A stretch of 53,468 bases of DNA from an uncultured Planctomycetia bacterium (GTDB lineage: Bacteria > Omnitrophota > Gorgyraeia > 1-14-0-20-64-10): NCBI GenBank assembly GCA_964372395.1, contig CAYJQV010000007.1, positions 1-53,468 of the forward strand. Reading direction: 5' to 3'. Positions 9,362-46,808 of the stretch are shown here, one piece after another. The number at the start of each line of letters is the position of its first letter. The stretch's first letter is position 1. The translations under genes and the position numbers were made by a program. The notes under the pieces are model-generated. The model made no database searches, was not told the origin of the DNA, and saw nothing but the letters and a program-made list of their open reading frames with translations.

Positions 9362-9499
9362 TTAAGGGACCAATCGGTGGCGTCCCTTTTGGCGCCGGCG
9401 CCGAAGGACCTTGCGTCCCCCCCGCCGGGCCATCCGCCGACGAAAGCCGTGCCGACGCCTGCGCTTGAGCAAGGAAATCGGACGGAGGTGCTTCTTCAC
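9362..9499 (-). CDS. rpmH: 50S ribosomal protein L34
   Basis: Not in the ORF track (45 aa, GTG start). Translation is [45 protein letters not shown], the classical rpmH upstream of rnpA. Confidence 0.9.
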
Positions 9500-9526
9500 G
9501 CGCGCATTGTATCAGCCGCCGCGCGG

Positions 9527-9575
9527 GCTTGTCAAACCACGCGGCTTGTCAAACCACGCGGGCTTGTGCTAGACT
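9527..9575 (+). promoter_or_regulatory. 17-bp tandem repeat (2 full copies plus a partial third) carrying -35-like TTGTCA boxes; putative dnaA promoter
   Basis: GCTTGTCAAACCACGCG at 9527-9543 and 9544-9560, then GGCTTGTGCTAGACT. TTGTCA (9546-9551), an 18-nt spacer and TAGACT (9570-9575) lie upstream of dnaA. Confidence 0.35.
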
Positions 9576-9601
9576 CTCTGCGTCCTTGAGCTTCCTTCCG
9601 A

Positions 9602-10966
9602 ATGGACCGATTAAACCTGAACCTCTGGAATCAAGCCCTCAGTCACATTCAGGGGCAGCTCCCCACTCAAGCCTATGAGACGTGGTTTCAGCCCACCCGG
9701 GCCGTCGAGTCCACCACCGGCTCGCTCGTGGTGGAGGTCCCCAACCCCTTCTTCCGCGACTGGCTGACCACCCACTACACCGACCTCATCCACGAGACCC
9801 TGCAGCACCTGGCCCGCACCAAGGTGGAGGTCCAGTACACCCTGCCGCAGCAGGCGCCCGAGGAGCCGCCTGCGCTCGCGGCCGCTTCCGCATCCCCTGC
9901 TCCTGCACCCGCAGCCCCTGCCTGGCCCGCACCGGTCCCTGAGCCGGTTCTGAACTTCCGCTACACCTTTGAGCAGTTCGTCATCGGCCCTTCCAATCGG
10001 TTCGCCCATGCGGCCTCGGTGGCGGTGAGTGAAACCCCCGCCAAGGTGTACAACCCCCTCTTCATCCACGGGGGCGTCGGTCTGGGAAAGACGCACCTCA
10101 TGCAGGCGATCGGGCACCGGATCCGGGAGCGTTTCCCCCAGGCCCGCGGCATCTACCTCTCCAGCGAGCGGTTCACCAATCAGCTCATCTCCGCGATCCA
10201 AAACCGCTCGATGGCCGCCTTCCGCGAGCGGTTCCGCTCGGCCGACATCCTCCTGGTGGACGACATCCAATTCATCGCAGGAAAAGAGGCCACGCAGGAG
10301 GGGTTCTTCCACACCTTCAACGCCCTCTATGACTCCCACAAGCAGATCGTGATCTCCAGCGACCGTCCCCCCAAGGAGCTTCACGGGGTGGAGGAGCGGC
10401 TCGTCTCCCGGTTCGAATGGGGACTGGTCGTGGACATCCAGCCGCCGGACCTGGAAACGCGGGTGGCCATCCTGAGGAAGAAAGCGGAGGCGCAGGCAAC
10501 TCCCGTTCCCGATGAGGTCACCCTCTTTATTGCGGAGCGCGTCAGCTCCAACATCCGCGAGCTGGAAGGGGCGCTTAACCGGGTTATTGCCTACGGCGTA
10601 TTGACCGGCCGGCAGATGTCTCTCTCCATGGCACAGGAGGTTTTAAAGGGCTTGGTGGCGGAGGTCGCCAGGAATGTGACGGTGGAACGGATCCAGCGTT
10701 TCGTTGCCGGCTATTTCAACATCACCCTGGCAGAGCTAAAGGGTAAGCGGCGGACAAAGGCCCTTTCGTTGCCGCGCCAGCTGGCCATGGCGATGGCCCG
10801 CGAGCTGACGGATGCCTCTTTGCCCTCCATTGGGGAGGCGTTCGGTGGAAGGGATCATGCAACCGTTGTATACGCCTGTCAAAAGATCGCGCGGGTTCGG
10901 TCACAACCGGGCAAGCTGAAGGAGCTCTTTGAGTCGTTGCAGGCGGCATTCCTGCGGGAGGGATAG
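9602..10966 (+). CDS. dnaA: chromosomal replication initiator DnaA
   Basis: NPLFIHGGVGLGKTHLMQAIGH, LLVDDIQF, SDRPP and the C-terminal DNA-binding LPRQLAMAMARELT..SLPSIGEAFGGRDHATV. Confidence 0.97.
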   Translation: MDRLNLNLWNQALSHIQGQLPTQAYETWFQPTRAVESTTGSLVVEVPNPFFRDWLTTHYTDLIHETLQHLARTKVEVQYTLPQQAPEEPPALAAASASPAPAPAAPAWPAPVPEPVLNFRYTFEQFVIGPSNRFAHAASVAVSETPAKVYNPLFIHGGVGLGKTHLMQAIGHRIRERFPQARGIYLSSERFTNQLISAIQNRSMAAFRERFRSADILLVDDIQFIAGKEATQEGFFHTFNALYDSHKQIVISSDRPPKELHGVEERLVSRFEWGLVVDIQPPDLETRVAILRKKAEAQATPVPDEVTLFIAERVSSNIRELEGALNRVIAYGVLTGRQMSLSMAQEVLKGLVAEVARNVTVERIQRFVAGYFNITLAELKGKRRTKALSLPRQLAMAMARELTDASLPSIGEAFGGRDHATVVYACQKIARVRSQPGKLKELFESLQAAFLREG

Positions 10967-11158: not shown

Positions 11159-12256
11159 ATGAAAGCTCGCATTTCCAGGGAGAATCTCTTCAAGGCAGTT
11201 CAGAGGGTTTACCCTGTTGTTCCTTCCAAGAGCACGTTGCCGATCCTGTCCCACCTCCTCTTGGAGGCCAAGAAGGAGAGCCTGCAGGTCACCGGTACCG
11301 ATCTGGAGCTGGGCATCACAACCGCGGTTTCAGCAGAGGTCGCGGAAGAGGGATCCATCGCTGTTCCGGCGAAACGGTTCCACGATCTGGTCAAGGAGCT
11401 GCCTGAGGAATCGCTGCAGATGACCTGCAGGAAGAATCAGCAGATCGGAATCGAATGCGCCCGCGGGGTGTTCAAGATCGTCGGCCTTCCAAAGGAAGAG
11501 TTTCCCCGCCTCCCCAGCACGGCAAGCCAGGATACCCTGACGATCGATCAGGGGGTCCTCCAGGCAATGCTGGCACTGACCCTCTTCTCCGTTTCCCATG
11601 ACGAATCCCGCTACATGCTGACCGGAGTCCTCTTCGCCACACAGAATGGCTGGCTTCGGCTTGTCTCCACGGATGGACGCCGGATGGCGATGGTGGAGCG
11701 AGAGGCGAGGGCAAGCGGGGTCAAGGATCAGCAGCTCATCGTCCCGCAAAAAACATTGCAGGAGCTGCTGCGCCTCCTGGGGGAGGGGCCCACCGTGAAG
11801 ATCTCGCTCAAGGAGACACAGATCACCTTTGACCTGGGAAACACACTCGTCATCAGCCGGTTGATCGAGGGCAAGTTCCCGAACTACGAGCAGGTGATCC
11901 CGGCGGAAAGCCCCAATAAGATGTCGGTGAACCGGGAGGACTTTCTGGTCGCAGCTCGAAGGATCTCCCTCTGGTCGACCCAGGATTCGCCGTCCGTGCG
12001 ACTGGATCTTAAACCGGACCAGCTAGTGGTCTCCAAGCAAAGCCCGGAAGTCGGGGAGGCGCATGAGGACGTTCGAGTCAGCTACGCAGGACCGGAGTTT
12101 TCCATTGGATTCAACCCCGCCTATCTCATCGACGTGTTGAAGGCCCTCCCCGACGGGAGCGTGGAGATGGAGCTGCCCGGACCGGACCGGCCGGGCGTCA
12201 TCCGGACAAAGGACCACTACCTGTACATCGTCCTGCCGATGCAGTTAAGCCAGTAG
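11159..12256 (+). CDS. dnaN: DNA polymerase III beta sliding clamp
   Basis: 365 aa following dnaA. LPILSHLLLEA, TGTDLEL, RYMLTGVLF and LVSTDGRRMA motifs. Confidence 0.95.
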   Translation: MKARISRENLFKAVQRVYPVVPSKSTLPILSHLLLEAKKESLQVTGTDLELGITTAVSAEVAEEGSIAVPAKRFHDLVKELPEESLQMTCRKNQQIGIECARGVFKIVGLPKEEFPRLPSTASQDTLTIDQGVLQAMLALTLFSVSHDESRYMLTGVLFATQNGWLRLVSTDGRRMAMVEREARASGVKDQQLIVPQKTLQELLRLLGEGPTVKISLKETQITFDLGNTLVISRLIEGKFPNYEQVIPAESPNKMSVNREDFLVAARRISLWSTQDSPSVRLDLKPDQLVVSKQSPEVGEAHEDVRVSYAGPEFSIGFNPAYLIDVLKALPDGSVEMELPGPDRPGVIRTKDHYLYIVLPMQLSQ

Positions 12257-33982: not shown

Positions 33983-33996
33983 TTACTGCCAGGAAG

Positions 33997-34693
<697 letters not shown>

Positions 34694-34695
34694 AG

Positions 34696-37737: not shown

Positions 37738-38073
37738 ATGAAGGAGGTGGCGCGCATGCGTTCGACTTGGAAGACGTGGGCAAGCCTGCTTGGGTTGGTG
37801 CTCTTCGCGACGGGGGCGTCGGTCGAGGGGGTCCAGGAGGCCCGGCGTTGGCAGCACAATGGCGATATCCCCACCGCGCTGGGGCAGTGGGACGCGGCTT
37901 ATGTCTACTACCGCAGGACCGCGGAGCTCTTCCCGGATACCGCACGGGGCAGGTACGCCGCCTCACGCTCCCGGCGGATGCGCAGCATCCTGCTCCGGCC
38001 GGAGCGTGGGCCGGGGGAGGAGAGCGGCGCCGCGTGGGTGGGGGAGTTCATCGATTTCCTGACCTGGCCTTAG
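37738..38073 (+). CDS. hypothetical small secreted protein
   Basis: Hydrophobic N-terminus WASLLGLVLFATGASVEG. No recognisable family. Confidence 0.35.
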   Translation: MKEVARMRSTWKTWASLLGLVLFATGASVEGVQEARRWQHNGDIPTALGQWDAAYVYYRRTAELFPDTARGRYAASRSRRMRSILLRPERGPGEESGAAWVGEFIDFLTWP

Positions 38074-38088
38074 ATCGGAAGGGGGCGG

Positions 38089-38544
38089 GTGCGGTTTCTC
38101 GTCACACCGGAGCTGGGCCGACTGGCCCGGTGGCTGCGGCTCCTCGGATACGACACAGCGTATGCGCCGCTGGGCCAGCCGTGGCGCGAGGTCCTCATCC
38201 AGGCGATGCAGGAGCAGCGGCTGCTGGTCGCGCGGGACGGACGGTACCGGGGCGGACGGGGCGTGCAGGTCGTGAGGATCGCCAGCGACCGCCTGAGGGA
38301 CCAGCTCAGGGAGTTCCTGGCGGCGCTGGAGGCCGCTCCAGAGGAAGGGGCGATCTTCAGCCGGTGCCTGCGCTGCAATGAGCCGCTGGAGGAGATGCGG
38401 AGGGAATCGGTGGCTGCAAGGGTTCCCCCCTACGTTCTTCGGACGGCCAAGGAGTTCGTGCGCTGTGCGCGGTGCGATCGGATCTACTGGCCGGGGACGC
38501 ACCTGGATCTGGCAGAGGCATTCTTGAGAGAGGTTTCGGGATGA
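38089..38544 (+). CDS. Mut7-C RNase domain (DUF82, PIN-like) protein
   Basis: FLVTPELGRLARWLRLLGYDT, LLVARD and the C-terminal zinc ribbon CLRCN...CARCDRIYWPGTH. Confidence 0.7.
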   Translation: MRFLVTPELGRLARWLRLLGYDTAYAPLGQPWREVLIQAMQEQRLLVARDGRYRGGRGVQVVRIASDRLRDQLREFLAALEAAPEEGAIFSRCLRCNEPLEEMRRESVAARVPPYVLRTAKEFVRCARCDRIYWPGTHLDLAEAFLREVSG

Positions 38545-39779
38545 AGATCGTTGCCGATTTCCACCTGCATTCCAAGTACAGCCGGGCGACAAGCAGCCGG
38601 CTGGACCTGGACCTTCTGGCGCAGTGGGCCAGGTACAAGGGGATCCAGCTCCTGGGGACGGGCGACTCGACGCACCCCCTGTGGATGCAGGAGCTCAAGT
38701 CCAAGCTCAAGCCGGCCTCCGGTGGGCTATACGAATACAACGGGGTCTGGTTCCTTCCGACCGCGGAGGTGAACACCCTGTTCCTCTCGGGTGCGAAGAG
38801 CCACCGGATCCACATCCTGCTCTTCTTCCCGAGTCTCGAGGTGGCGCAGGCGCTGAACCAGAAGCTGGCCCGGTACGGGGATCTGAACAGCGACGGCAGG
38901 CCCTCCCTGCGGCTCTCCGCCCGGGATCTGACGAGGATGGCGCTCGACACCTCGCCGAAAATCCTGGTCGTGCCTGCGCATGCCTGGACGCCCCATTTCA
39001 GCGTGTTCGGGGCCAACTCCGGATTCGACACGGTGGAGGAATGCTTCGGGGATCAGGCGAGCCAGATCCATTGCCTGGAGACCGGCCTCTCCAGCGACCC
39101 GGCCATGAACTGGCGTCTGAGTCGGCTGGACCGCTACACGCTCATCTCCAACTCCGACTCCCACGCGGCCCAGCGGATCGGCCGCGAGGCGAATGTCTTT
39201 GACTGCGAGCCAGGCTACGACCCGATCGCCTCAATCCTCCGGACCAAGGATGCCCGGCGATTCCTCTACACCATCGAGTTCTTCCCGGAAGAGGGGAAAT
39301 ACCACTACGACGGCCACCGGCTCTGCAAGGTGCGCGTTTCACCCGAGGAGGCGGCCCGGCAGGGCAACCGCTGCCCGGCCTGCGGGAGGAAGGTGACGGT
39401 GGGGGTGATGCATCGGGTCGCCGAGCTGGCCGACCGGCCGGAGGATTACCGTCCCGCGCAGGAGATCCCCTTCAGGCATCTGGTCCCGCTGGACCAGATC
39501 ATCGCCGAGGCGCGCGGGGTGGGGGTGGGGACCAAATCGGTCGAGCAGGAGTACCTGGATCTGGTGCAGCGGGTCGGGACAGAGCTGGAGATCCTGCTGG
39601 AGCTGCCGGAGGAGGCCCTGCGCAAGCAGCTGTCGCCCCGGCTCCTCGACGGGATCCTGCGGGTGCGCAGGTCCCAGGTGGAGATCCTGCCGGGATACGA
39701 CGGGGAGTATGGAGAGGTGAAGATCTTCAAGGAGGGACAGGAGTCGGCTGGGGAGAAGCAGCTGACCCTGTTCGAGTAG
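38541..39779 (+). CDS. endonuclease Q-like PHP-domain protein (TIGR00375 family)
   Basis: MKIVADFHLHSKYSRATS..LGTGDSTHPLW, VPAHAWTPHFSVFG, SNSDSH and zinc finger CPACGRKVTVGVMHRV. ATGA overlap with the Mut7-C gene. Confidence 0.7.
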   Translation: MKIVADFHLHSKYSRATSSRLDLDLLAQWARYKGIQLLGTGDSTHPLWMQELKSKLKPASGGLYEYNGVWFLPTAEVNTLFLSGAKSHRIHILLFFPSLEVAQALNQKLARYGDLNSDGRPSLRLSARDLTRMALDTSPKILVVPAHAWTPHFSVFGANSGFDTVEECFGDQASQIHCLETGLSSDPAMNWRLSRLDRYTLISNSDSHAAQRIGREANVFDCEPGYDPIASILRTKDARRFLYTIEFFPEEGKYHYDGHRLCKVRVSPEEAARQGNRCPACGRKVTVGVMHRVAELADRPEDYRPAQEIPFRHLVPLDQIIAEARGVGVGTKSVEQEYLDLVQRVGTELEILLELPEEALRKQLSPRLLDGILRVRRSQVEILPGYDGEYGEVKIFKEGQESAGEKQLTLFE

Positions 39780-39785
39780 GCGGCG

Positions 39786-40907
39786 ATGAAGGCCCTCTTG
39801 GCTTTAGAGGACGGCACCGTCTTCCACGGGGAGTCGTTTGGGGCTGCCGGTGAGGTGGCGGGGGAGGTGATCTTCAACACCTCCATGACCGGCTATCAGG
39901 AGATCCTGACCGATCCCTCGTACAAGGGGCAGATCGTGACGATGACCTACCCTCTGATCGGCAACTACGGGGTGAACAAGAGCGATGTGGAGTCGGCAAA
40001 GCCCCAGGTGGAGGGATTCGTCATCCGGGCGCTCAGCCCGGTCGCCTCCAGCTGGCGCAAGGAGGCGACGCTGGAGGAATGGCTGAAGGCGCACGGCACG
40101 GTGGCCATCCAGGGGGTGGATACGCGGGCCCTGACGGTTCTGCTGCGCGAGAAAGGGGCCCTGAAGGGAATCCTCTCGACGGCGGACCTGGATCCCGCGC
40201 GGCTGGTGAAAAAGGCGAAGGAGTCGCCCGGGCTGCTGGGGCGGGACCTGGTGAAGGAGGTGACGTGCGGCGAGATCCATGCGTGGAGTGAGGAAATCCC
40301 AAAGGGGTCTGACCCCAAAAGCCATTCCGGGGTCAGACCCCATGTGGCGGCGGTGGACTGCGGGATGAAGGCCCACATCCCCCGGATGCTGACCCAGGCC
40401 GGGTGCCAGGTGACCGTGGTCCCCGCGACGGCGACCGCCCGCGAGATCCTGGAGATGAAGCCGGACGGGCTGTTCCTCTCCAACGGGCCCGGCGATCCGG
40501 AAGGGATGCCCTATCTCGTCTCCGCGGTCCGGGACTGTGTGGGCCGGCTGCCGATCTTCGGGATCTGCCTGGGGCACCAGATCCTGGGGCTGGCCCTGGG
40601 AGGCAAGACGTACAAGCTCAAGTTCGGTCACCACGGAGCAAACCATCCGGTCATGGATCTGGCGACCGGCCGCGTCGAGATCACCGCGCAGAACCATGGC
40701 TTCTCGGTGGATCCCGATTCGATCCCGGGGGGAGCGGTGGAGGTTACCCATCGGAACCTGAACGACAAGACCTGCGAGGGGATGCGCCACCGGGAGCAAC
40801 CGGTCTTCTCGGTCCAGTACCATCCGGAGGCCTCCCCCGGCCCGCATGATTCCCGGCATCTCTTCAGGAGATTCGTCCGGATGATGGAGACGGGGGTGGC
40901 GCCATGA
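39786..40907 (+). CDS. carA: carbamoyl-phosphate synthase small (glutaminase) subunit
   Basis: [28 protein letters not shown] and HHGANHPV motifs. Carries palindromic element E1 in the inter-domain linker. Confidence 0.95.
40304..40341 (+). repeat. palindromic element E1, in frame in carA
   Basis: GGGGTCTGACCCC-aaaagccattcc-GGGGTCAGACCCC, translated [13 protein letters not shown]. Confidence 0.9.
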
Positions 40908-41569
40908 AGAGACTGTTGTTGGCGGGAGCGGGGCTCGTCCTGGCGCTGGCGATTTTCCTGATCTGGAGCAGGGCGATCCACCACGAGAATTCGCTTCCGC
41001 CGGAATCGCCCCCGGCTCCCGCCGAGCCAGCCGGTCCGGTCCCCGTGCCGGTGGTTTCACCGGAGGAGCAGCCGGCACGCGAGACAACCCCGCCCCGGCC
41101 CACGGCACCGGTCCAGGTCCGTTTCGAGGCGCCGGCGTCAGCGCCGTTCGGGCAGGGCACCCCGGTGGTCCTCGTGGTTGAAAGCGACCCGAAGGCCTGG
41201 CCGGAGAGCGTGGAGGGGGAGGTCACGCTGGAGCTTCTCCTGCGGCTGCCGGTGGGGGTCCGGCTGGAGTCCGACGGCTGGGCCGGCGTGGAGCTGCCGG
41301 CAGAGGAGAAGGATGATCGGAGCGGACCGTGGTCCCTCTTCGAGCGGAAGATCTCCGTTCGGATCCCGGCGGGGGAGATCCCGCTGGTCGTGGCCCGGGA
41401 GGCCATCTCGCTGGCCGTCATCGAACAGGGGACCAACTGGATCATGACCGTCCGCGCCCGTCTGGTGAGCGGCTCCGAGGCCTGGCAGAGTTTCGGCGTC
41501 CTCTTCGCCACCGTCCAAGCAGGTCAAGCAGAGTTCCACACGGTTCCCCGCCCCACAGGGAATGCCTAA
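40904..41569 (+). CDS. hypothetical membrane-anchored Pro-rich protein between carA and carB
   Basis: N-terminal [20 protein letters not shown], then a [19 protein letters not shown] linker. ATGA overlap with carA and an 8-nt overlap with carB. Confidence 0.5.
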
Positions 41570-44500
41570 GAGAACCGACCTCAAGAAGATCCTGATCATC
41601 GGATCCGGCCCCATCATCATCTCCCAGGCCTGCGAGTTCGATTACTCCGGGACCCAGGCCTGCAAGGCCCTGCGCGAGGAGGGCTACTCGGTGGTTCTGG
41701 TCAACTCCAATCCCGCCACCATCATGACCGATCCGGAGTTTGCCGATCGGACCTACGTGGAGCCGGTGACCGCGGAGGCGGTGGAGAAGGTGATCCTTCG
41801 GGAGAAGCCGGATGCGCTCCTGCCCACGCTGGGTGGGCAGACCGGCCTCAACGTGGCGATGCAGCTCGCCCAGTCCGGCGTGCTGGAGCGCTGCGGGGTT
41901 GAGATGATCGGGGCGAACGCGCAGGCGATTGCCAAGGCGGAGGACCGGGAGCTGTTCAAGCAGACCGTGCTGGCGCACGGGCTGGACGTTCCCCGCAGCG
42001 GGGTGGCGCACAGCCTCGATGAGGCGCGCCGGGTCGCCGAGGAGATCGGCTTCCCGGTCGTGGTGCGGCCCGCCTTCACGCTGGGAGGGACCGGCGGAGG
42101 GGTGGCGTACAACTGGGAGGAGTTCCAGAGGACCGCGGAGATGGGCCTGAGCCTGAGCATGGTCTCCGAGATCCTCATCGAGGAGTCGGTGGAGGGGTGG
42201 AAGGAGTTTGAGTTGGAGGTGATGCGGGACCGGAAGGACAACGTCGTGATCGTCTGCTCGATCGAGAACCTGGACCCCATGGGAATCCACACGGGGGATT
42301 CGATCACGGTCGCCCCGACCCAGACCCTGACCGACAAGGAACTCCAGGCGATGCGCAGCGACGCCATCACCGTGATCCGCGCCATCGGCGTGGAGACGGG
42401 GGGATCGAACATCCAGTTCGCCGTCCATCCGGAGACGGGCCGGCGGGTGGTGATCGAGATGAACCCGCGCGTCTCCCGGTCGTCCGCGCTGGCCTCGAAG
42501 GCCACGGGCTTCCCGATCGCCAAGATCGCGGCGAAGCTGGCGGTCGGCTACACGCTGGACGAGATCCCCAACGACATCACGAAGAAGACCCCGGCCTGCT
42601 TCGAGCCGACGCTGGACTACTGCGTGGTGAAGATCCCCCGATGGGCGTTTGAGAAGTTTCCGGCCGCGGATCCCACGCTCACCATCCAGATGAAGTCCGT
42701 CGGGGAGGCGATGGCGATCGGCCGGACCTTCAAGGAGGCGCTGCAGAAGGGCCTCCGGTCCCTGGAGATCGGGCGGGCGGGGTTGGGAGCCGATGGGAAG
42801 GACGCCCCCGCCCCCGATCTGGACGAGCTCAGGAGGAAGCTCCACACCCCCAACGCCGACCGGATCTTCGCCCTGCGGCTGGCCATGCAGGCGGGGATGT
42901 CCAACGAGGAGATCCATCGGCTCACCCGGATCGATCCCTGGTTCCTGCAGGAGATCCGCCAGATCGTCGATCTGGAGCAGGAGCTAAAGGGGTCAGACCC
43001 CTTCAAAAGGGGTCTGACCCCAACACGTTTTGACCCGGGGCTGCTCCTCAAGGCGAAGCAGTACGGCTTCAGCGACAGGCAGCTTTCCTTTCTCTGGGGC
43101 AAGCCGGAGCTTCAGATCCGGAAGTGGCGGTTCGGGCTGGGCGTGCGGCCGCGCTTTTATCCCGTGGACACCTGCGCTGCGGAGTTCGAGGCGTACACGC
43201 CTTACTACTACTCCACGTATGAGCGTGTTCCGGAAAACCTAGCGGGGTCTGACCCCTTCGGCTCCACCCCATCTTTAAGAGAGGGTCAGACCCCAGCAGG
43301 GGTTAAGAAGGTGATGATCCTGGGCGGCGGCCCCAACCGGATCGGGCAGGGGATCGAGTTTGACTACTGCTGTGTCCGGGCGGCCTTTGCCCTCCGGGAG
43401 GCCGGCTGCCGGACGATCATGGTCAACTCCAACCCGGAGACCGTCTCCACCGACTACGACACCTCCGACGTCCTGTACTTTGAGCCGCTGACCTTCGAGG
43501 ATGTGCTGAACATCGTGGACGAGGAGAGGCCGGACGGGGTGATCATCCAGCTCGGCGGGCAGACGCCGCTCAACCTCGCGCTGGCGCTGGATCAGGCTGG
43601 CGTTCGGATCCTGGGGACCTCCTCGGAGGCGGTGGATCGGGCGGAGGACCGCAAGAAGTTCAGCCAGCTCATCGAGAAGCTGGGCCTGAAGCAGCCGCCC
43701 AACGGGACCGCCCACGAGGGCGGCGAGGCGCTTGCCATCGCCCGGCGGCTCACCTTCCCGGTTCTGGTGCGGCCCTCCTATGTGCTGGGGGGGCGGGCCA
43801 TGGAGATCGTCTACGACGAGGAGGGGCTCGCCTTTTACATGGCGCATGCGGTCCAGGCCTCCCCGGAGCATCCGGTGCTGGTGGACAAATTTCTGGAGGA
43901 TGCGATCGAGGTGGACGTGGATCTGGTGGCGGACGGCCAGGAGGCGCTGATCGGAGGGATCCTCGAGCACGTGGAGGAGGCCGGGGTTCACTCGGGGGAC
44001 GCGGCGATGGTCCTGCCTGCGCACACCCTGCCGGCGGCCGTGCTGGATCAGATCCGGGATGCGAGCCGGCGCCTCGCGCGGGAGCTCCAGGTGCGCGGGC
44101 TCATGAACATCCAGTTTGCCGTCAAGGACGGCCAGGTGTACGTGCTGGAGGTAAACCCCCGCGCCTCCCGGACGGTCCCCTTTGTCTCGAAGGCCGTCGC
44201 GGTTCCCCTCGTGAAGCTCGCGACCCTGGTGATGACCGGCTCTCGCCTCCGGGAGTTGGGCTTTACGCAGGAGGTTCGCCTGCCGTTTACGGCGGTCAAG
44301 GAGTCGGTCTTCCCCTTCGCCCGGTTCTTCGGGGTGGACATCATCCTGGGGCCGGAGATGCGCTCCACCGGCGAGGTGATGGGGATCGACACCACTTTCG
44401 GGATGGCCTTTGCCAAGTCGCAGATGGCGACCTATCAGAAGGTGCCGCTGGAGGGAACGGTCTTCCTGAGCGTCAAGGACCGGGACAAGCCGGCGGCTCT

Positions 44501-44909
44501 GGGGATTGCGCGCCGGCTGGTTCAGCTGGGATTCCAGATCGTCTCGACGCGCGGGACGGCGGCCGCCCTGCGCCAGCACGGGGTGCAGGCGGGGGAGGTC
44601 AAGAAGATCTACGAAGGCCGGCCGGATGTCCTGGATTTCCTGCGCGATTCGAAGGTGGACCTCATCATCAACACCCCGGCGGGGAAGGCGACCAAGGAAG
44701 ACGAGACCAAGATCCGCTCCCTGGCCGTGTCGCGGGGGATCCCCTGTGTGACCACCATCCCGGGCGCCCAGGCCCTGGTCACGGGGATCGACGCCCTCAA
44801 GAACCAGGGGTACGGCGTCTGCTCCCTCCAGGAATGGCATGAGCGGATCCGGGCGGGGCAGAGCTCCGGCTCCAGCAGGAGCGGGCCGGTCGCGGTGGCC
44901 AGGAGCTGA
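41562..44909 (+). CDS. carB: carbamoyl-phosphate synthase large subunit
   Basis: [25 protein letters not shown], and a second half [22 protein letters not shown]. 1115 aa. Carries elements E2 and E3. Confidence 0.97.
42989..43021 (+). repeat. palindromic element E2, in frame in carB
   Basis: GGGGTCAGACCCC-ttcaaaa-GGGGTCTGACCCC, translated [12 protein letters not shown]. Confidence 0.9.
43244..43294 (+). repeat. palindromic element E3, in frame in carB (linker between the two synthetase halves)
   Basis: GGGGTCTGACCCC-25 nt-AGGGTCAGACCCC, translated [18 protein letters not shown]. Confidence 0.85.
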
Positions 44910-44917
44910 GGACCCGC

Positions 44918-45820
44918 GTGAAGCCGCTGCCGCGCGGGATGGTGCAGGAACGGGCGCACGTCCTTCTCCACCGGAGGATCGCGGCGGACCACCATCTGCT
45001 CAGAATCCACTCCCCCCGGGCCGCGCGGCGGGCCGAGCCGGGGCAGTTCATCCACATCCTCTGCGGGGAGAGTGGACCGGGCACAGCGGGCCGGGGACAG
45101 TCCCCCTCGGGTACAGCCCCCTTTTTGAGGAGGCCCCTCTCGCTGTTTGATGCCGATCCGGTTCGGGGGTTCATCGAGGTGATCTACAAGGTGGTCGGAT
45201 TGGGAACGGCCTCCCTGGCGCGGGTTCCGGTCGGCGCACGGGTCGATTTCCTCGGGCCCCTGGGAAGGCCCTTCCTCCCCCCCGAAGGAGGAGAGACGCT
45301 TTTCCTCGTGGGGGGAGGGGTCGGGATTCCTCCGCTGTACTTTCTGGCTAAAAAGCTGAAGGGGTCTGATCCCTTGAAAAGGGGTCAGACCCCCGTTGGG
45401 CTCGAGGTCTTTCTGGGGGCGCGGACCAGGGGCTGGGTGATCTGCGCCTCCGCCTTCTCGCGGCTCGGGATTCGGGTCGGCGTGGCGACCGATGACGGCT
45501 CGTGGGGGTGGCGCGGCAGCGTGGTGGATCTCCTTCGCAGGCGCCTGCGGGCGAGGGGACGCAACGGTAGTGTGGCCCTCTGCGTCTGCGGGCCCACCCC
45601 CATGATGGCTGCGGCGGCGGCGCTGGCCAGGCAGGCGCGCATGCCGGCGCAGGTATCGCTGGAGGAGCGCATGGGCTGCGCCATGGGCTGCTGCATGGGA
45701 TGCGTGGTGGAGATGGCGACCCAGCCCAAAAACAGCCACGCCCGGTTCCAGCGGGTCTGCACGGAGGGCCCTGTGTTCGATGCGCGGGAGATTCTCTGGA
45801 GAAACCCTCGTGGGGTCTGA
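44918..45820 (+). CDS. pyrK: dihydroorotate dehydrogenase electron-transfer subunit
   Basis: GTG start. FAD/NAD-binding fold and the 2Fe-2S motif GCAMGCCMGCVV. The stop TGA lies in the centre of the first arm of E5. Carries E4. Confidence 0.88.
   Translation: MKPLPRGMVQERAHVLLHRRIAADHHLLRIHSPRAARRAEPGQFIHILCGESGPGTAGRGQSPSGTAPFLRRPLSLFDADPVRGFIEVIYKVVGLGTASLARVPVGARVDFLGPLGRPFLPPEGGETLFLVGGGVGIPPLYFLAKKLKGSDPLKRGQTPVGLEVFLGARTRGWVICASAFSRLGIRVGVATDDGSWGWRGSVVDLLRRRLRARGRNGSVALCVCGPTPMMAAAAALARQARMPAQVSLEERMGCAMGCCMGCVVEMATQPKNSHARFQRVCTEGPVFDAREILWRNPRGV
45361..45393 (+). repeat. palindromic element E4, in frame in pyrK
   Basis: GGGGTCTGATCCC-ttgaaaa-GGGGTCAGACCCC, translated K-GSDP-LKR-GQTP. 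Confidence 0.9.
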
Positions 45821-46808
45821 CCCCAAAAGGCCTTTAGGGGTCAGACCCCGTCAGGTTGATCTTTCAGTCCACCTGGGGAGGTTCCGGCTCCAGAACCCTA
45901 TCCTCGTCGCCTCCGGCACGTTCGGTTACGGAGAGGAGTACCATCGGCTCTACGACGTCAACATCCTGGGCGGGATCGTCACCAAGTCGATTTCCTTAAA
46001 GCCCCGGCCGGGCAACCCCGCCCCGCGCATCTACGAGACCCCTTCGGGGATGATCAACTCGATCGGCCTGCAGAATGTGGGGCTGGCAGCGTTCCTGAAG
46101 GAGAAGCTTTCCTTCCTCCGGCGGCTCAAGGGCCCGCGGGTCATCGTGAATCTGATCGGGGAGCGGGCATCGGAGTATGCGGAGCTGGCGCGCCGGCTGG
46201 AGGAGGCGGCCGGTGTGGATGCCCTGGAGCTCAACCTCTCCTGCCCGAACTGCGAGCGGGGCGGGATGGAGTTCGGCGTGGACCCGAAACTCACGGCGGA
46301 GGTGGTGGCCCGCGTGCGGAAGGTGACCCGCAAGATGCTGATCGCCAAGCTTTCGCCCAACGTGACCGACATGGTGCCGGTTGCGCGGGCAGCGGCAGAG
46401 GCCGGCGCCGACGCCCTGTCGCTCATCAACACGATCCTCGCGGTGGCGGTGGATCCGAACAGCTGGCGGCCCCGGATCGCCACGGTGACCGGCGGATTGA
46501 GCGGGCCGGCGGTGAAGCCGATCGCCCTTCGCATGGTCTGGCAGATCCACCGCGCGATTCCCCAGGTGCCGCTCATCGGAATCGGTGGTATCATGACCGC
46601 CGAGGACGTTGTGGAGTTCATGCTCTGCGGGGCCAGCGCCGTGCAGCTCGGCACAGTCAACTACGTCCATCCCAAGGCCCCGGTGGAGATCCTGGGGGCC
46701 TTAAGACGCTACCTTCAGAGGAAGAAGCTCTCCGGCCCGGCTGGGCTGGTCGGGAAGCTCAAGGCACCGCAGCGCTTGAGGGGCGTGCCGGCGGTGGTGG
46801 CGGGGTGA
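45810..46808 (+). CDS. pyrD: dihydroorotate dehydrogenase B catalytic subunit (start GTG 45810 preferred; ATG 45780 alternative)
   Basis: LQNPILVASGTFGYG, NSIGLQN and LNLSCPN motifs. GGAGA (45798-45802) lies 7 nt before GTG 45810. Confidence 0.9.
   Translation: MGSDPKRPLGVRPRQVDLSVHLGRFRLQNPILVASGTFGYGEEYHRLYDVNILGGIVTKSISLKPRPGNPAPRIYETPSGMINSIGLQNVGLAAFLKEKLSFLRRLKGPRVIVNLIGERASEYAELARRLEEAAGVDALELNLSCPNCERGGMEFGVDPKLTAEVVARVRKVTRKMLIAKLSPNVTDMVPVARAAAEAGADALSLINTILAVAVDPNSWRPRIATVTGGLSGPAVKPIALRMVWQIHRAIPQVPLIGIGGIMTAEDVVEFMLCGASAVQLGTVNYVHPKAPVEILGALRRYLQRKKLSGPAGLVGKLKAPQRLRGVPAVVAG
45812..45849 (+). repeat. palindromic element E5 at the pyrK/pyrD junction
   Basis: GGGGTCTGACCCC-aaaaggccttta-GGGGTCAGACCCC. 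Read as ..GV-stop in the pyrK frame and as GSDPKRPLGVRP in the pyrD frame. Confidence 0.9.

Follow-up and report, generated by a model that had tools for sequence, protein, structure and literature searches.

Five palindromic elements lying in frame in a pyrimidine-biosynthesis operon of an Omnitrophota bacterium are probably transposase-linked repeats

Introduction

How does a pyrimidine-biosynthesis operon come to carry five copies of one GC-rich hairpin element inside the reading frames of its genes? The question is raised by a 53,468-nt stretch of contig CAYJQV010000007.1 (assembly GCA_964372395.1) from an uncultured bacterium of the Omnitrophota, which is called the window in what follows. 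The source contig to which the analysis assigned it is CAMTXW010000019.1 of assembly GCA_947085785.1, and its CarB relatives place the organism in Candidatus Omnitrophota. Within it, doublets of a 13-nt palindrome, GGGGTCWGACCCC, occur in or at the genes carA, carB, pyrK and pyrD. The original prediction, made from the DNA alone, took them either for a mobile palindrome tolerated inside open reading frames (ORFs), like the Rickettsia palindromic elements (RPEs), or for a signal, in the mRNA or as a protein operator, that would be peculiar to the car/pyr transcript. We assign a probability of about 0.74 to the reading that the five elements are non-autonomous palindromic repeats of the type represented by repetitive extragenic palindromes (REPs) and REP doublets forming hairpins (REPINs), and that they belong to a transposase-linked family with the end motif GGGGWCAG (here GGGGTCAG).

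Results

Structure and folding of the elements

A search of the window for GGGGTCWGACCCC with at most one mismatch found 10 sites, compared with a chance expectation of 0.34, and none of 100 shuffled sequences reached 10. The arm starts pair up (40304/40329, 42989/43009, 43244/43282, 45361/45381 and 45812/45837) into five doublets, E1 to E5, with spans of 38, 33, 51, 33 and 38 nt. Each 13-mer arm is its own palindrome about a central W (A or T), and in all five doublets the two arms are also complementary to one another over 13-19 bp, the stem of E3 containing one A-C mismatch and that of E4 one G-U pair. The motif search thus reproduced the doublets of the original prediction together with their coordinates, spans and stem irregularities. 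The claimed absence from the other 48 kb of the window held as well, since no additional copy of GGGGTCWGACCCC was present there or in 9.7 kb per side on the same contig. When three mismatches were allowed, 30 sites were found in the window compared with 39.6 expected, i.e. no excess over chance.

RNA folding gave a single long hairpin for each doublet, with free energies of -28.7 to -32.5 kcal/mol and z values of -4.7 to -8.8 relative to shuffled controls. E1 (40304..40341, in carA) consists of GGGGTCTGACCCC, a 12-nt spacer and GGGGTCAGACCCC, and is read as a 12-residue peptide (-30.4 kcal/mol, z -5.35). E2 (42989..43021, in carB) is composed of GGGGTCAGACCCC - TTCAAAA - GGGGTCTGACCCC and yields an 11-residue peptide (-31.8 kcal/mol, z -8.77). 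It is the sole A..T doublet among the five, its complementarity is 15/15, and the CTAAA to its left probably belongs to the unit. E3 (43244..43294, also in carB) has a 25-nt spacer between GGGGTCTGACCCC and AGGGTCAGACCCC and is read as 17 residues (-32.5 kcal/mol). E4 (45361..45393, in pyrK) is GGGGTCTGATCCC - TTGAAAA - GGGGTCAGACCCC, with the peptide GSDPLKRGQTP (-28.7 kcal/mol), and E5 (45812..45849), in the pyrK/pyrD overlap, is GGGGTCTGACCCC - AAAAGGCCTTTA - GGGGTCAGACCCC (-32.5 kcal/mol). The E4 unit is nearly identical to the E2 unit and the E5 spacer is similar to that of E1, both likenesses reaching into a few flanking bases.

Insertion sites and reading frames

The host genes all lie on the forward strand. 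E1 is in carA (39786..40907), E2 and E3 are in carB (41562..44909) and E4 is in pyrK (44918..45820), whose stop codon falls within E5; pyrD (45810..46808), with the GTG start called on the source contig, takes its N-terminus from E5. Every copy in the window thus lies within an ORF or spans a gene overlap, and in this Omnitrophota lineage all readable copies are in or at coding sequence. To judge from the open frames, the elements are presumably translated.

Pfam boundaries and orthologue alignments upheld the earlier view that the host positions are inter-domain linkers and loops. E1 lies between the CPSase_sm_chain (5-130) and GATase (189-365) domains of CarA, and E2 within the CarB oligomerisation domain (426-512), in a loop of varying length. 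The E3 site is the linker right before the second CarB pre-ATP-grasp domain (starting at 582), which here has ∼17 residues beyond most CarB proteins. E4 occupies the PyrK loop that follows the GGGVGIPPLYFLAK helix, and E5 stands ahead of the PyrD DHO_dh domain, which starts at residue 19.

In the carA, carB, pyrK and pyrD frames the first G of the element is the third codon base, and arm 1 is read as G-S-D-P and arm 2 as G-V-R-P or G-(L/Q)-T-P. pyrK ends at the TGA in the middle of E5 arm 1 (45818-45820), and the pyrD frame (GTG at 45810) gives 13 additional N-terminal PyrD residues, GSDPKRPLGVRPR. The shared phase and the order of GSDP and GxxP peptides, to which the original prediction had drawn attention, are therefore observed, but they carry little weight as a signal. 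Only one forward-strand frame is free of stops for E3, E4 and E5, and two for E1 and E2. With so few stop-free frames on the sense strand, the common codon phase is mostly what open genes require and gives no signal of its own. A codon-phase preference was also dropped on the basis of verified intragenic arms, in which ∼15 GSDP, 7 GxTP and 4 GVRP were counted by hand (chi-square p ∼0.2).

Sister genomes carry the same operon without the elements

We compared the operon with that of two sister genomes from independent assemblies, L202 (ENA) and L203 (GCA_964343105.1). The gene order is common to all three: carA, an ORF of 217-221 residues, carB, pyrK, pyrD, pyrF and pyrE. DNA identity to the sisters over aligned bases is 96% for carB, 91% for pyrK-pyrD and ∼91-92% for carA. 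Not one GGGGTCWGACCCC arm occurs in the operon of L202 or L203, i.e. all five elements are absent. Since such near-identical sister operons lack them, the elements are recent and lineage-specific. An orthologue alignment had been proposed along with the original prediction, and the 91-96% identical, element-free sisters confirm that the inserted segments are specific to this lineage.

The sites differ in what the sisters have instead. At E1 both contain unrelated sequence of comparable length, including a short GC-rich palindrome, GGCCCCGCAGGGGCC, and in a more distant relative, L205, this linker is shorter. E2 corresponds to a net gain of 9 nt and E4 to one of 24 nt. At E3 the sisters again have unrelated sequence of comparable length; L203 has another long palindromic repeat there, GCGAGCCCCGCAGGGGCGAAG ... 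GGGGCTCGC, and L202 likewise has a different palindromic element. Other GC-rich palindromic sequence is thus found in the sisters at the E3 site and, less clearly, at the E1 site. At E5 a 16-nt sister stretch is exchanged for 55 nt (net +39 nt): the overlap is ATGGGCATTGA in the sisters and GTGGGGTCTGA plus the rest of the element in the window, and the 11-nt stop/start overlap of the sisters is reproduced.

No target-site duplication was found at any of the five sites in comparison with L202 and L203. Transposition by HUH/Y1 enzymes (IS200/IS605) leaves no such duplication, so its absence is consistent with this mode of transposition. A miniature inverted-repeat transposable element derived from a DDE transposon was considered and rejected, as no site has the duplication expected of it.

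The 13-mer family in other genomes

A scan of species-representative genomes for the paired GGGGTCWGACCCC motif identified at least 120 loci in Bacillota, Pseudomonadota, Actinomycetota, Acidobacteriota, Planctomycetota, Omnitrophota and others. The family statistics that follow are those among the matches listed. Hosts include Lachnospiraceae, Massilia, Marinobacter, Halomonas, Gaiellales and Solirubrobacterales, and in several loci 8 kb contain 3-14 arms. Of 358 arms, 356 have A or T at their centre, and the doublets are divided among the types A..T (81), A..A (40), T..T (29) and T..A (27). Spacers of every length from 5 to 30 nt occur, and flanking A-runs and T-runs are frequent, most commonly AAAA and TTTT. 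No conserved GTAG or CGTC tag was found in the flanks of the five elements or of the 150-odd listed doublets. The repeats are depleted from long ORFs, in which 49% of them lie compared with 86% of random positions. The original prediction had described the motif as clustered in one operon; this is true within the readable part of this genome, but the 13-mer itself is dispersed across many phyla in genic and, for the most part, intergenic DNA. The exact 13-mer appeared in no paper of the searchable full-text literature.

In-frame copies are also found elsewhere. Those backed by Pfam are in HrpA (Ferrovum), a GH36 glycosidase (Bacillota), RecG, alanyl-tRNA synthetase (Solirubrobacterales), arginyl-tRNA synthetase (Vicinamibacterales), the C-terminal linker of FtsA from another Omnitrophota metagenome-assembled genome (MAG), a thiamine pyrophosphate enzyme (Coriobacteriia) and a Mu-like portal protein. 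They lie mostly between domains and use all three frames, giving GSDP, GVRP and GQTP/GLTP. In the viral collection the paired motif was found at 9 loci, compared with 0 and 0 for two composition-matched control palindromes, and a related repeat, GGGGACWGTCCCC, forms pairs at 4 viral-contig loci.

Among the viral sequences, a 51-kb contig labelled as a giant-virus MAG (IMGVR_UViG_GVMAG-S-404869-41_000001; L209, L212 and L214) has at least four doublets. Two phage-like contigs (L208:2063-2104 and L211:8004-8035) have doublets in or adjoining portal genes, at residue 511 of 598 in a Mu-like portal protein and in the upstream part of a Phage_portal gene.

Association with a RAYT-like Y1 transposase

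The ORFs of all repeat loci were clustered to seek a shared neighbour gene. The largest neighbour clusters were response regulators, dehydrogenases and ABC ATPases, and the fourth was a Y1 transposase. In five loci the small protein directly adjoining the repeats is an IS200-like Y1 transposase (PF01797, E 1e-8 to 1e-15) with the HxH and catalytic-tyrosine motifs, in the form of HVHLL and YIELNPVRAG. Its best and only NCBIfam match is NF047646, ‘REP-associated tyrosine transposase’ (RAYT), at 64 bits; by this match the protein is RAYT-like rather than an E. coli-type equivalog. The exact 13-mer brackets the Y1_Tnp gene in Halomonas (3 species), Marinobacter, Comamonadaceae, Desulfobulbales and Gemmatimonadaceae, as singles, doublets or triplets, and Burkholderiales have copies with one mismatch.

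We also analyzed a wider sample of this transposase clade, comprising 80 loci of which 52 had full flanks. GGGGWCAG was present within ∼400 nt upstream of the transposase gene in 41 of the 52, compared with 3 of 52 distant control stretches, and CTGWCCCC within ∼440 nt downstream in 36 of the 52, compared with 4 control stretches. The flanks contain inverted repeats that start with GGGGTCAGA or GGGGACAGACCACG upstream and have the complements downstream; no repeat flanks the RAYT clade more often than GGGGACAGACCACG, the tip of GGGGACWGTCCCC. Because the clade repeats have these ends upstream and downstream of the gene, the 13-mer GGGGTCWGACCCC can be seen as two overlapping tips, GGGGTCAGA on the left and TCTGACCCC on the right, which together make one self-complementary unit. 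The polarity of the A..T doublets is that of the repeats around the transposase gene. A tblastn search with these transposases gave no match in the window, its flanks or any of the Omnitrophota loci.

Tandem arrays of the 13-mer, with a period of 21-38 nt, similar spacers and up to 14 matches in 8 kb, were observed in L052:2071-4367 and L222 (both Halomonas sp.) and in L037, L074, L100 and L110. The Halomonas arrays lie a few kb from the RAYT gene. The arrays resemble REP clusters of the kind known as bacterial interspersed mosaic elements, and some are read through by long ORFs.

Shared sites and palindrome turnover in more distant relatives

A CarB search of the species-representative genome collection returned relatives only at 68% identity or less. 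In L204, whose CarB is 81% identical, the E2 site itself is occupied by a near-identical E2-type element in which the two central bases have changed places. An E3-type element is present in L205 (82%), where both junctions are preserved and the 25-nt spacer is reverse-complemented (15/25 identical), and L302 (78%) has a solo right arm at the same E3 junction, the rest being replaced by another palindrome. An element is also present in the E2 loop in the CarB of contig P0023, and intergenic DNA of L206 contains one nearly identical to E2. An exact-match scan of the species-representative collection with the E2/E4 33-mer pattern had another MAG as its sole match.

In an alignment of 40 CarB proteins from the Omnitrophota clade, GSDP...GQTP peptides occur in a few lineages only. 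The CarB linker from STYER to KKIMILGGGP contains at least three families of repeat-derived peptides with a patchy distribution among 40 CarB proteins; P0007, P0014, P0015 and P0018, for instance, have VRGELVEPRT..LRQAQDER peptides. Other palindromic families lie in the same CarA/CarB linkers or nearby (L203:3520-3588, the same site in L202, L302:∼11680-11720, L205:3655-3682 and L204:6896-6924), examples being GCGAGCCCCGCAGGGGCGAAGCAA...GGGGCTCGC (peptides VIASPAGAKQ..EIAS), GGTGCCAGGATTAATCCTGGCACC and GCTCGTGGTGAGCCTGTCGAACCACGAGC. Several in-frame repeat families seem to abound in the clade, and these linkers are permissive hot spots with fast turnover.

One further stretch of the window is uncertain. 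In a variable PyrK loop at 45093..45121, GGGGACAGTCCCC is followed by a degenerate GGGTACAGCCCCC. The loop is wholly unlike that of the sister genomes, and GGGGACAGTCCCC is a perfect 13-mer of the sister palindrome GGGGACWGTCCCC, of which the stretch may be a degraded remnant. Its reading as a sixth hairpin was rejected, since there is no stable fold (z +1.04).

Discussion

If the five elements are repeats of the REP/REPIN type, the doublets would have been spread in this lineage by an HUH enzyme of the RAYT type that works on hairpins in single-stranded DNA. Purifying selection would clear the copies that break a frame or a fold, while in-frame, stop-free copies in tolerant loops would stay. 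The survivors would then be seen as 11-17 extra residues in such loops, read as the G-S-D-P, G-V-R-P or G-(L/Q)-T-P peptides described above. E5 would have been kept with its TGA and upstream GTG rebuilding the ancestral 11-nt pyrK/pyrD stop/start overlap. With the pyrD start placed at the base of a hairpin of -32 kcal/mol, translation of pyrD is probably tied to the termination of pyrK, and only ribosomes coming straight from unwinding the hairpin would reach this start. The occurrence of the exact 13-mer in distant phyla suggests an enzyme-repeat pair that may be widely transferred or very conserved.

Several observations weigh against this explanation. At the sites shared with relatives (E2 in L204; E3 in L205 and L302) the arms are almost perfect across ∼20% DNA divergence while the spacers drift, which is not explained by the neutral decay of a dead insertion. 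At E1-E4 the sister sequence between conserved flanks has been replaced, and there is no clean empty site to which an element was added. Five copies lie in 5.5 kb and none in the other 67 kb, a distribution with a probability of ∼1.6e-4 under uniform placement by a simple scan statistic. The score of the transposases falls short of the curated NCBIfam RAYT cut-off of 80 bits, and the classical REP tag GTAG is absent. No RAYT gene and no further repeat copy are present in the 72.9 kb of this genome that can be read, so that the transposase link is seen only in other phyla. The clustering, the replacement, the paired likenesses among the elements and the near-perfect arms may be due to re-insertion nearby within one replication fork, to homing towards existing hairpins or G-runs, to gene conversion or to selection on the hairpins.

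Other explanations were weighed against the same evidence. We consider it unlikely, though conceivable, that the linkers of essential enzymes in this clade are landing pads in which several unrelated palindrome families repeatedly overwrite one another at identical codon positions. A RAYT-type enzyme or hairpin-templated repair would home to pre-existing hairpins or G-runs, insertions would come in local bursts with the arms kept perfect, and at least E5 would have been co-opted for pyrK-pyrD coupling; if true, cassettes in coding sequence would be replaced in a targeted manner, and would not merely insert at random with selection acting afterwards. Rather unlikely, too, is exaptation, in which hairpins that arrived as selfish DNA are now kept for their effect in mRNA, by protecting it from RNases, by slowing ribosomes at the CarA/CarB domain boundaries or by making pyrD dependent on pyrK termination. 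The high stability of the hairpins (-29 to -32 kcal/mol) speaks for such a role, as do the location of all elements at domain boundaries or a gene junction, the overlap reproduced by E5, and arms that are near-perfect at sites shared with 78-82% identical relatives in which the spacers diverge. REPs are known to influence mRNA stability and termination, as passages of PMC3733652 have it. However, the same operon runs in the sisters without any element, and the unrelated palindrome families in the same linkers of other relatives point to a permissive site at which no particular sequence is needed. We regard it as improbable that no dedicated transposase was involved and that the copies arose by gene conversion or by hairpin template switching in replication, preferably over earlier palindromic inserts. 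Such preferential overwriting would account for both the clustering and the replacement. It agrees with the exchanges at E1-E4, the 16 nt turned into 55 nt at E5, the confinement of every copy to 5.5 kb and the other GC-rich palindromic sequence in the sisters at the E3 site and, less clearly, the E1 site. The likeness of E2 to E4 and of E1 to E5, with a few flanking bases included, also fits, but in the flanks it is short and statistically weak (8/14 bases for E1/E5), and the identical 13-mer in many phyla and around Y1 transposase genes is left unexplained.

An operon-specific regulatory signal, whether a site for PyrR or another regulator or a set of attenuators in the car/pyr transcript, is very improbable, and with it the second proposal of the original prediction falls away. 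The copies do cluster in one biosynthetic operon that has a pyrR gene at its head. Yet the same operon does without the elements in 91-96% identical genomes, the repeat is also found in other taxa, both between genes and in ftsA, alaS, argS, recG, hrpA and phage portal genes, and the match of the Rfam PyrR model is in the leader at 33993-34101, whereas the elements matched neither this nor any other Rfam family. When intrinsic terminators were looked for, no doublet was followed by a U-tract on the forward strand, and on the reverse strand this was the case for single arms only. It is scarcely credible that GSDP...GxxP is a conserved protein motif or that the doublets are an assembly artefact. 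The peptides recur across four enzymes, but there are orthologues without them, and elsewhere the same DNA is read in three frames, so that the conserved object is the DNA palindrome. Their presence in orthologues that lack the palindrome had been named in advance as evidence against insertion; the orthologue alignments show them to be absent. An artefact is contradicted by family members at the same sites in independent NCBI, ENA and JGI assemblies.

The explanation that we prefer, REP/REPIN-type repeats of a transposase-linked family, can be compared with published systems. Di Nocera, De Gregorio and Rocco (2013, BMC Genomics 14:522; PMC3733652) describe, in passages of their paper, ‘TIRYT’ Y1 genes flanked by inverted repeats with the consensus GGGGWSAS, some of them self-complementary, which occur as singles, dimers and clusters in moderate copy number. 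GGGGTCAG fits this consensus, and here also inverted repeats lie on either side of the Y1/HUH gene, with GGGGWCAG upstream and CTGWCCCC downstream. In those passages the TIRYT repeats are extragenic families of a few cultured species, e.g. Stenotrophomonas and Acidobacteria, whereas the present repeat is a minimal 13-mer with overlapped tips, identical across many phyla and, in this Omnitrophota lineage, with every readable copy in or at coding sequence. With the REP/REPIN-RAYT systems (Nunvar 2010; Bertels and Rainey 2011, PMC3116915; PMC5581495) the elements share a short palindrome whose inverted doublet forms one long hairpin, a usually single-copy Y1 transposase (here seen in other phyla), the lack of target-site duplication and a wide host range. 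Bertels et al. (2017, PMC5581495) report Group 1 RAYTs from 21 classes of bacteria, Clostridia among them, with flanking repeats in moderate abundance and indications of horizontal transfer, and this breadth fits the host range of the 13-mer family. They differ from those systems in having no GTAG tag, arms of 13 nt compared with 20-40 nt in classical REPs, and transposases below the NCBI RAYT equivalog cut-off; moreover, the copies in the window are intragenic while REPINs are by definition extragenic.

Intragenic REPs are known as well. According to passages of PMC3733652, those of the GTAG/CGTC class are most numerous in Opitutus terrae and Rickettsia conorii, are mostly dimers that encode 20-30 residues in repair genes, helicases and tRNA synthetases, and donate stop codons with their ends. 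The same source, as far as these passages go, also covers Thauera, Thioalkalivibrio and Xanthomonas, and the likeness to our elements extends to in-frame dimers in housekeeping genes, stop-codon donation and the presence of different REPs at roughly one position when a gene is compared between related species. Those REPs carry GTAG or CGTC tags in the same passages, unlike the GGGGWCAG type found here, where in addition five copies lie in one operon and insert-free sisters are known. The intragenic REP/REPIN-like repeats of the window are hence a new example of a known phenomenon. The case is instructive in that one operon has recently acquired five in-frame copies, a gene junction has been rebuilt and palindromes turn over at the same sites.

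The comparison with RPEs is partly sustained. Ogata and colleagues reportedly described these elements in 2000 as selfish palindromes that lie in frame in essential genes of Rickettsia and add surface or linker peptides. RPE-1 is roughly 100-150 bp long and confined to Rickettsia, and we know of no transposase associated with RPEs; RPE-4 and RPE-6 are treated in PMC3733652. A relationship in sequence to our elements was neither expected nor observed, although no alignment with RPE consensus sequences was made. The elements described here resemble them in their in-frame and, by their open frames, translated insertion in conserved genes, and are set apart by a size of 33-51 nt and by their Omnitrophota host; the behaviour is alike, not the family. 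A mobile palindrome tolerated in ORFs is thus supported by the absence from sisters, the variable linkers and the dispersed family, but kinship with RPEs is not, the relatives being transposase-linked REP/terminal inverted repeats instead.

On this reading the operon is a natural experiment in protein remodelling by selfish palindromes, in which four essential enzymes have gained 8-17 residues each and near-identical insert-free genomes are at hand, and in which the pyrK/pyrD junction has been rebuilt out of element sequence. It extends the published GGGGWSAS/Y1-transposase repeat family to Omnitrophota and to coding sequence. We believe that GSDP, GQTP, GLTP and GVRP peptides in proteins predicted from metagenomes flag repeat-derived segments and not conserved motifs.

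Other features of the region

The Rfam model of the PyrR site (RF00515) has a full-length match at 33993-34101 on the forward strand (46.8 bits, E 6e-4), which is below the gathering score of 54. The match lies directly upstream of a pyrR-like phosphoribosyltransferase gene (∼34107-34694) that heads the pyrB-pyrC-...-carA-carB-pyrK-pyrD-pyrF-pyrE cluster, and it is probably the real attenuator of the operon.

Between pyrC and carA there are genes with Mut7-C and MJ0043_C domains (window ∼37750-39780; L121:7971-9994). The MJ0043_C gene, an unusual passenger in a pyr operon, is also present upstream of carA in L205 and L302. The ORF between carA and carB (40904-41569, forward strand, 221 residues) overlaps both neighbours with its start and stop codons. 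It has an N-terminal hydrophobic segment and a proline-rich stretch, gave no Pfam match, and is kept at the same position in all relatives examined (L202-L205 and L302).

The cumulative GC skew has its minimum at ∼9-12 kb of the window. Because this minimum lies near dnaA (9602-10966), the replication origin is probably located there, and the car/pyr operon would be ∼30 kb away on the leading strand. Upstream of dnaA, in the region 9420-9600, a 17-mer, GGCTTGTCAAACCACGC, is perfectly duplicated in tandem at 9526-9559 and accompanied by a partial third copy.

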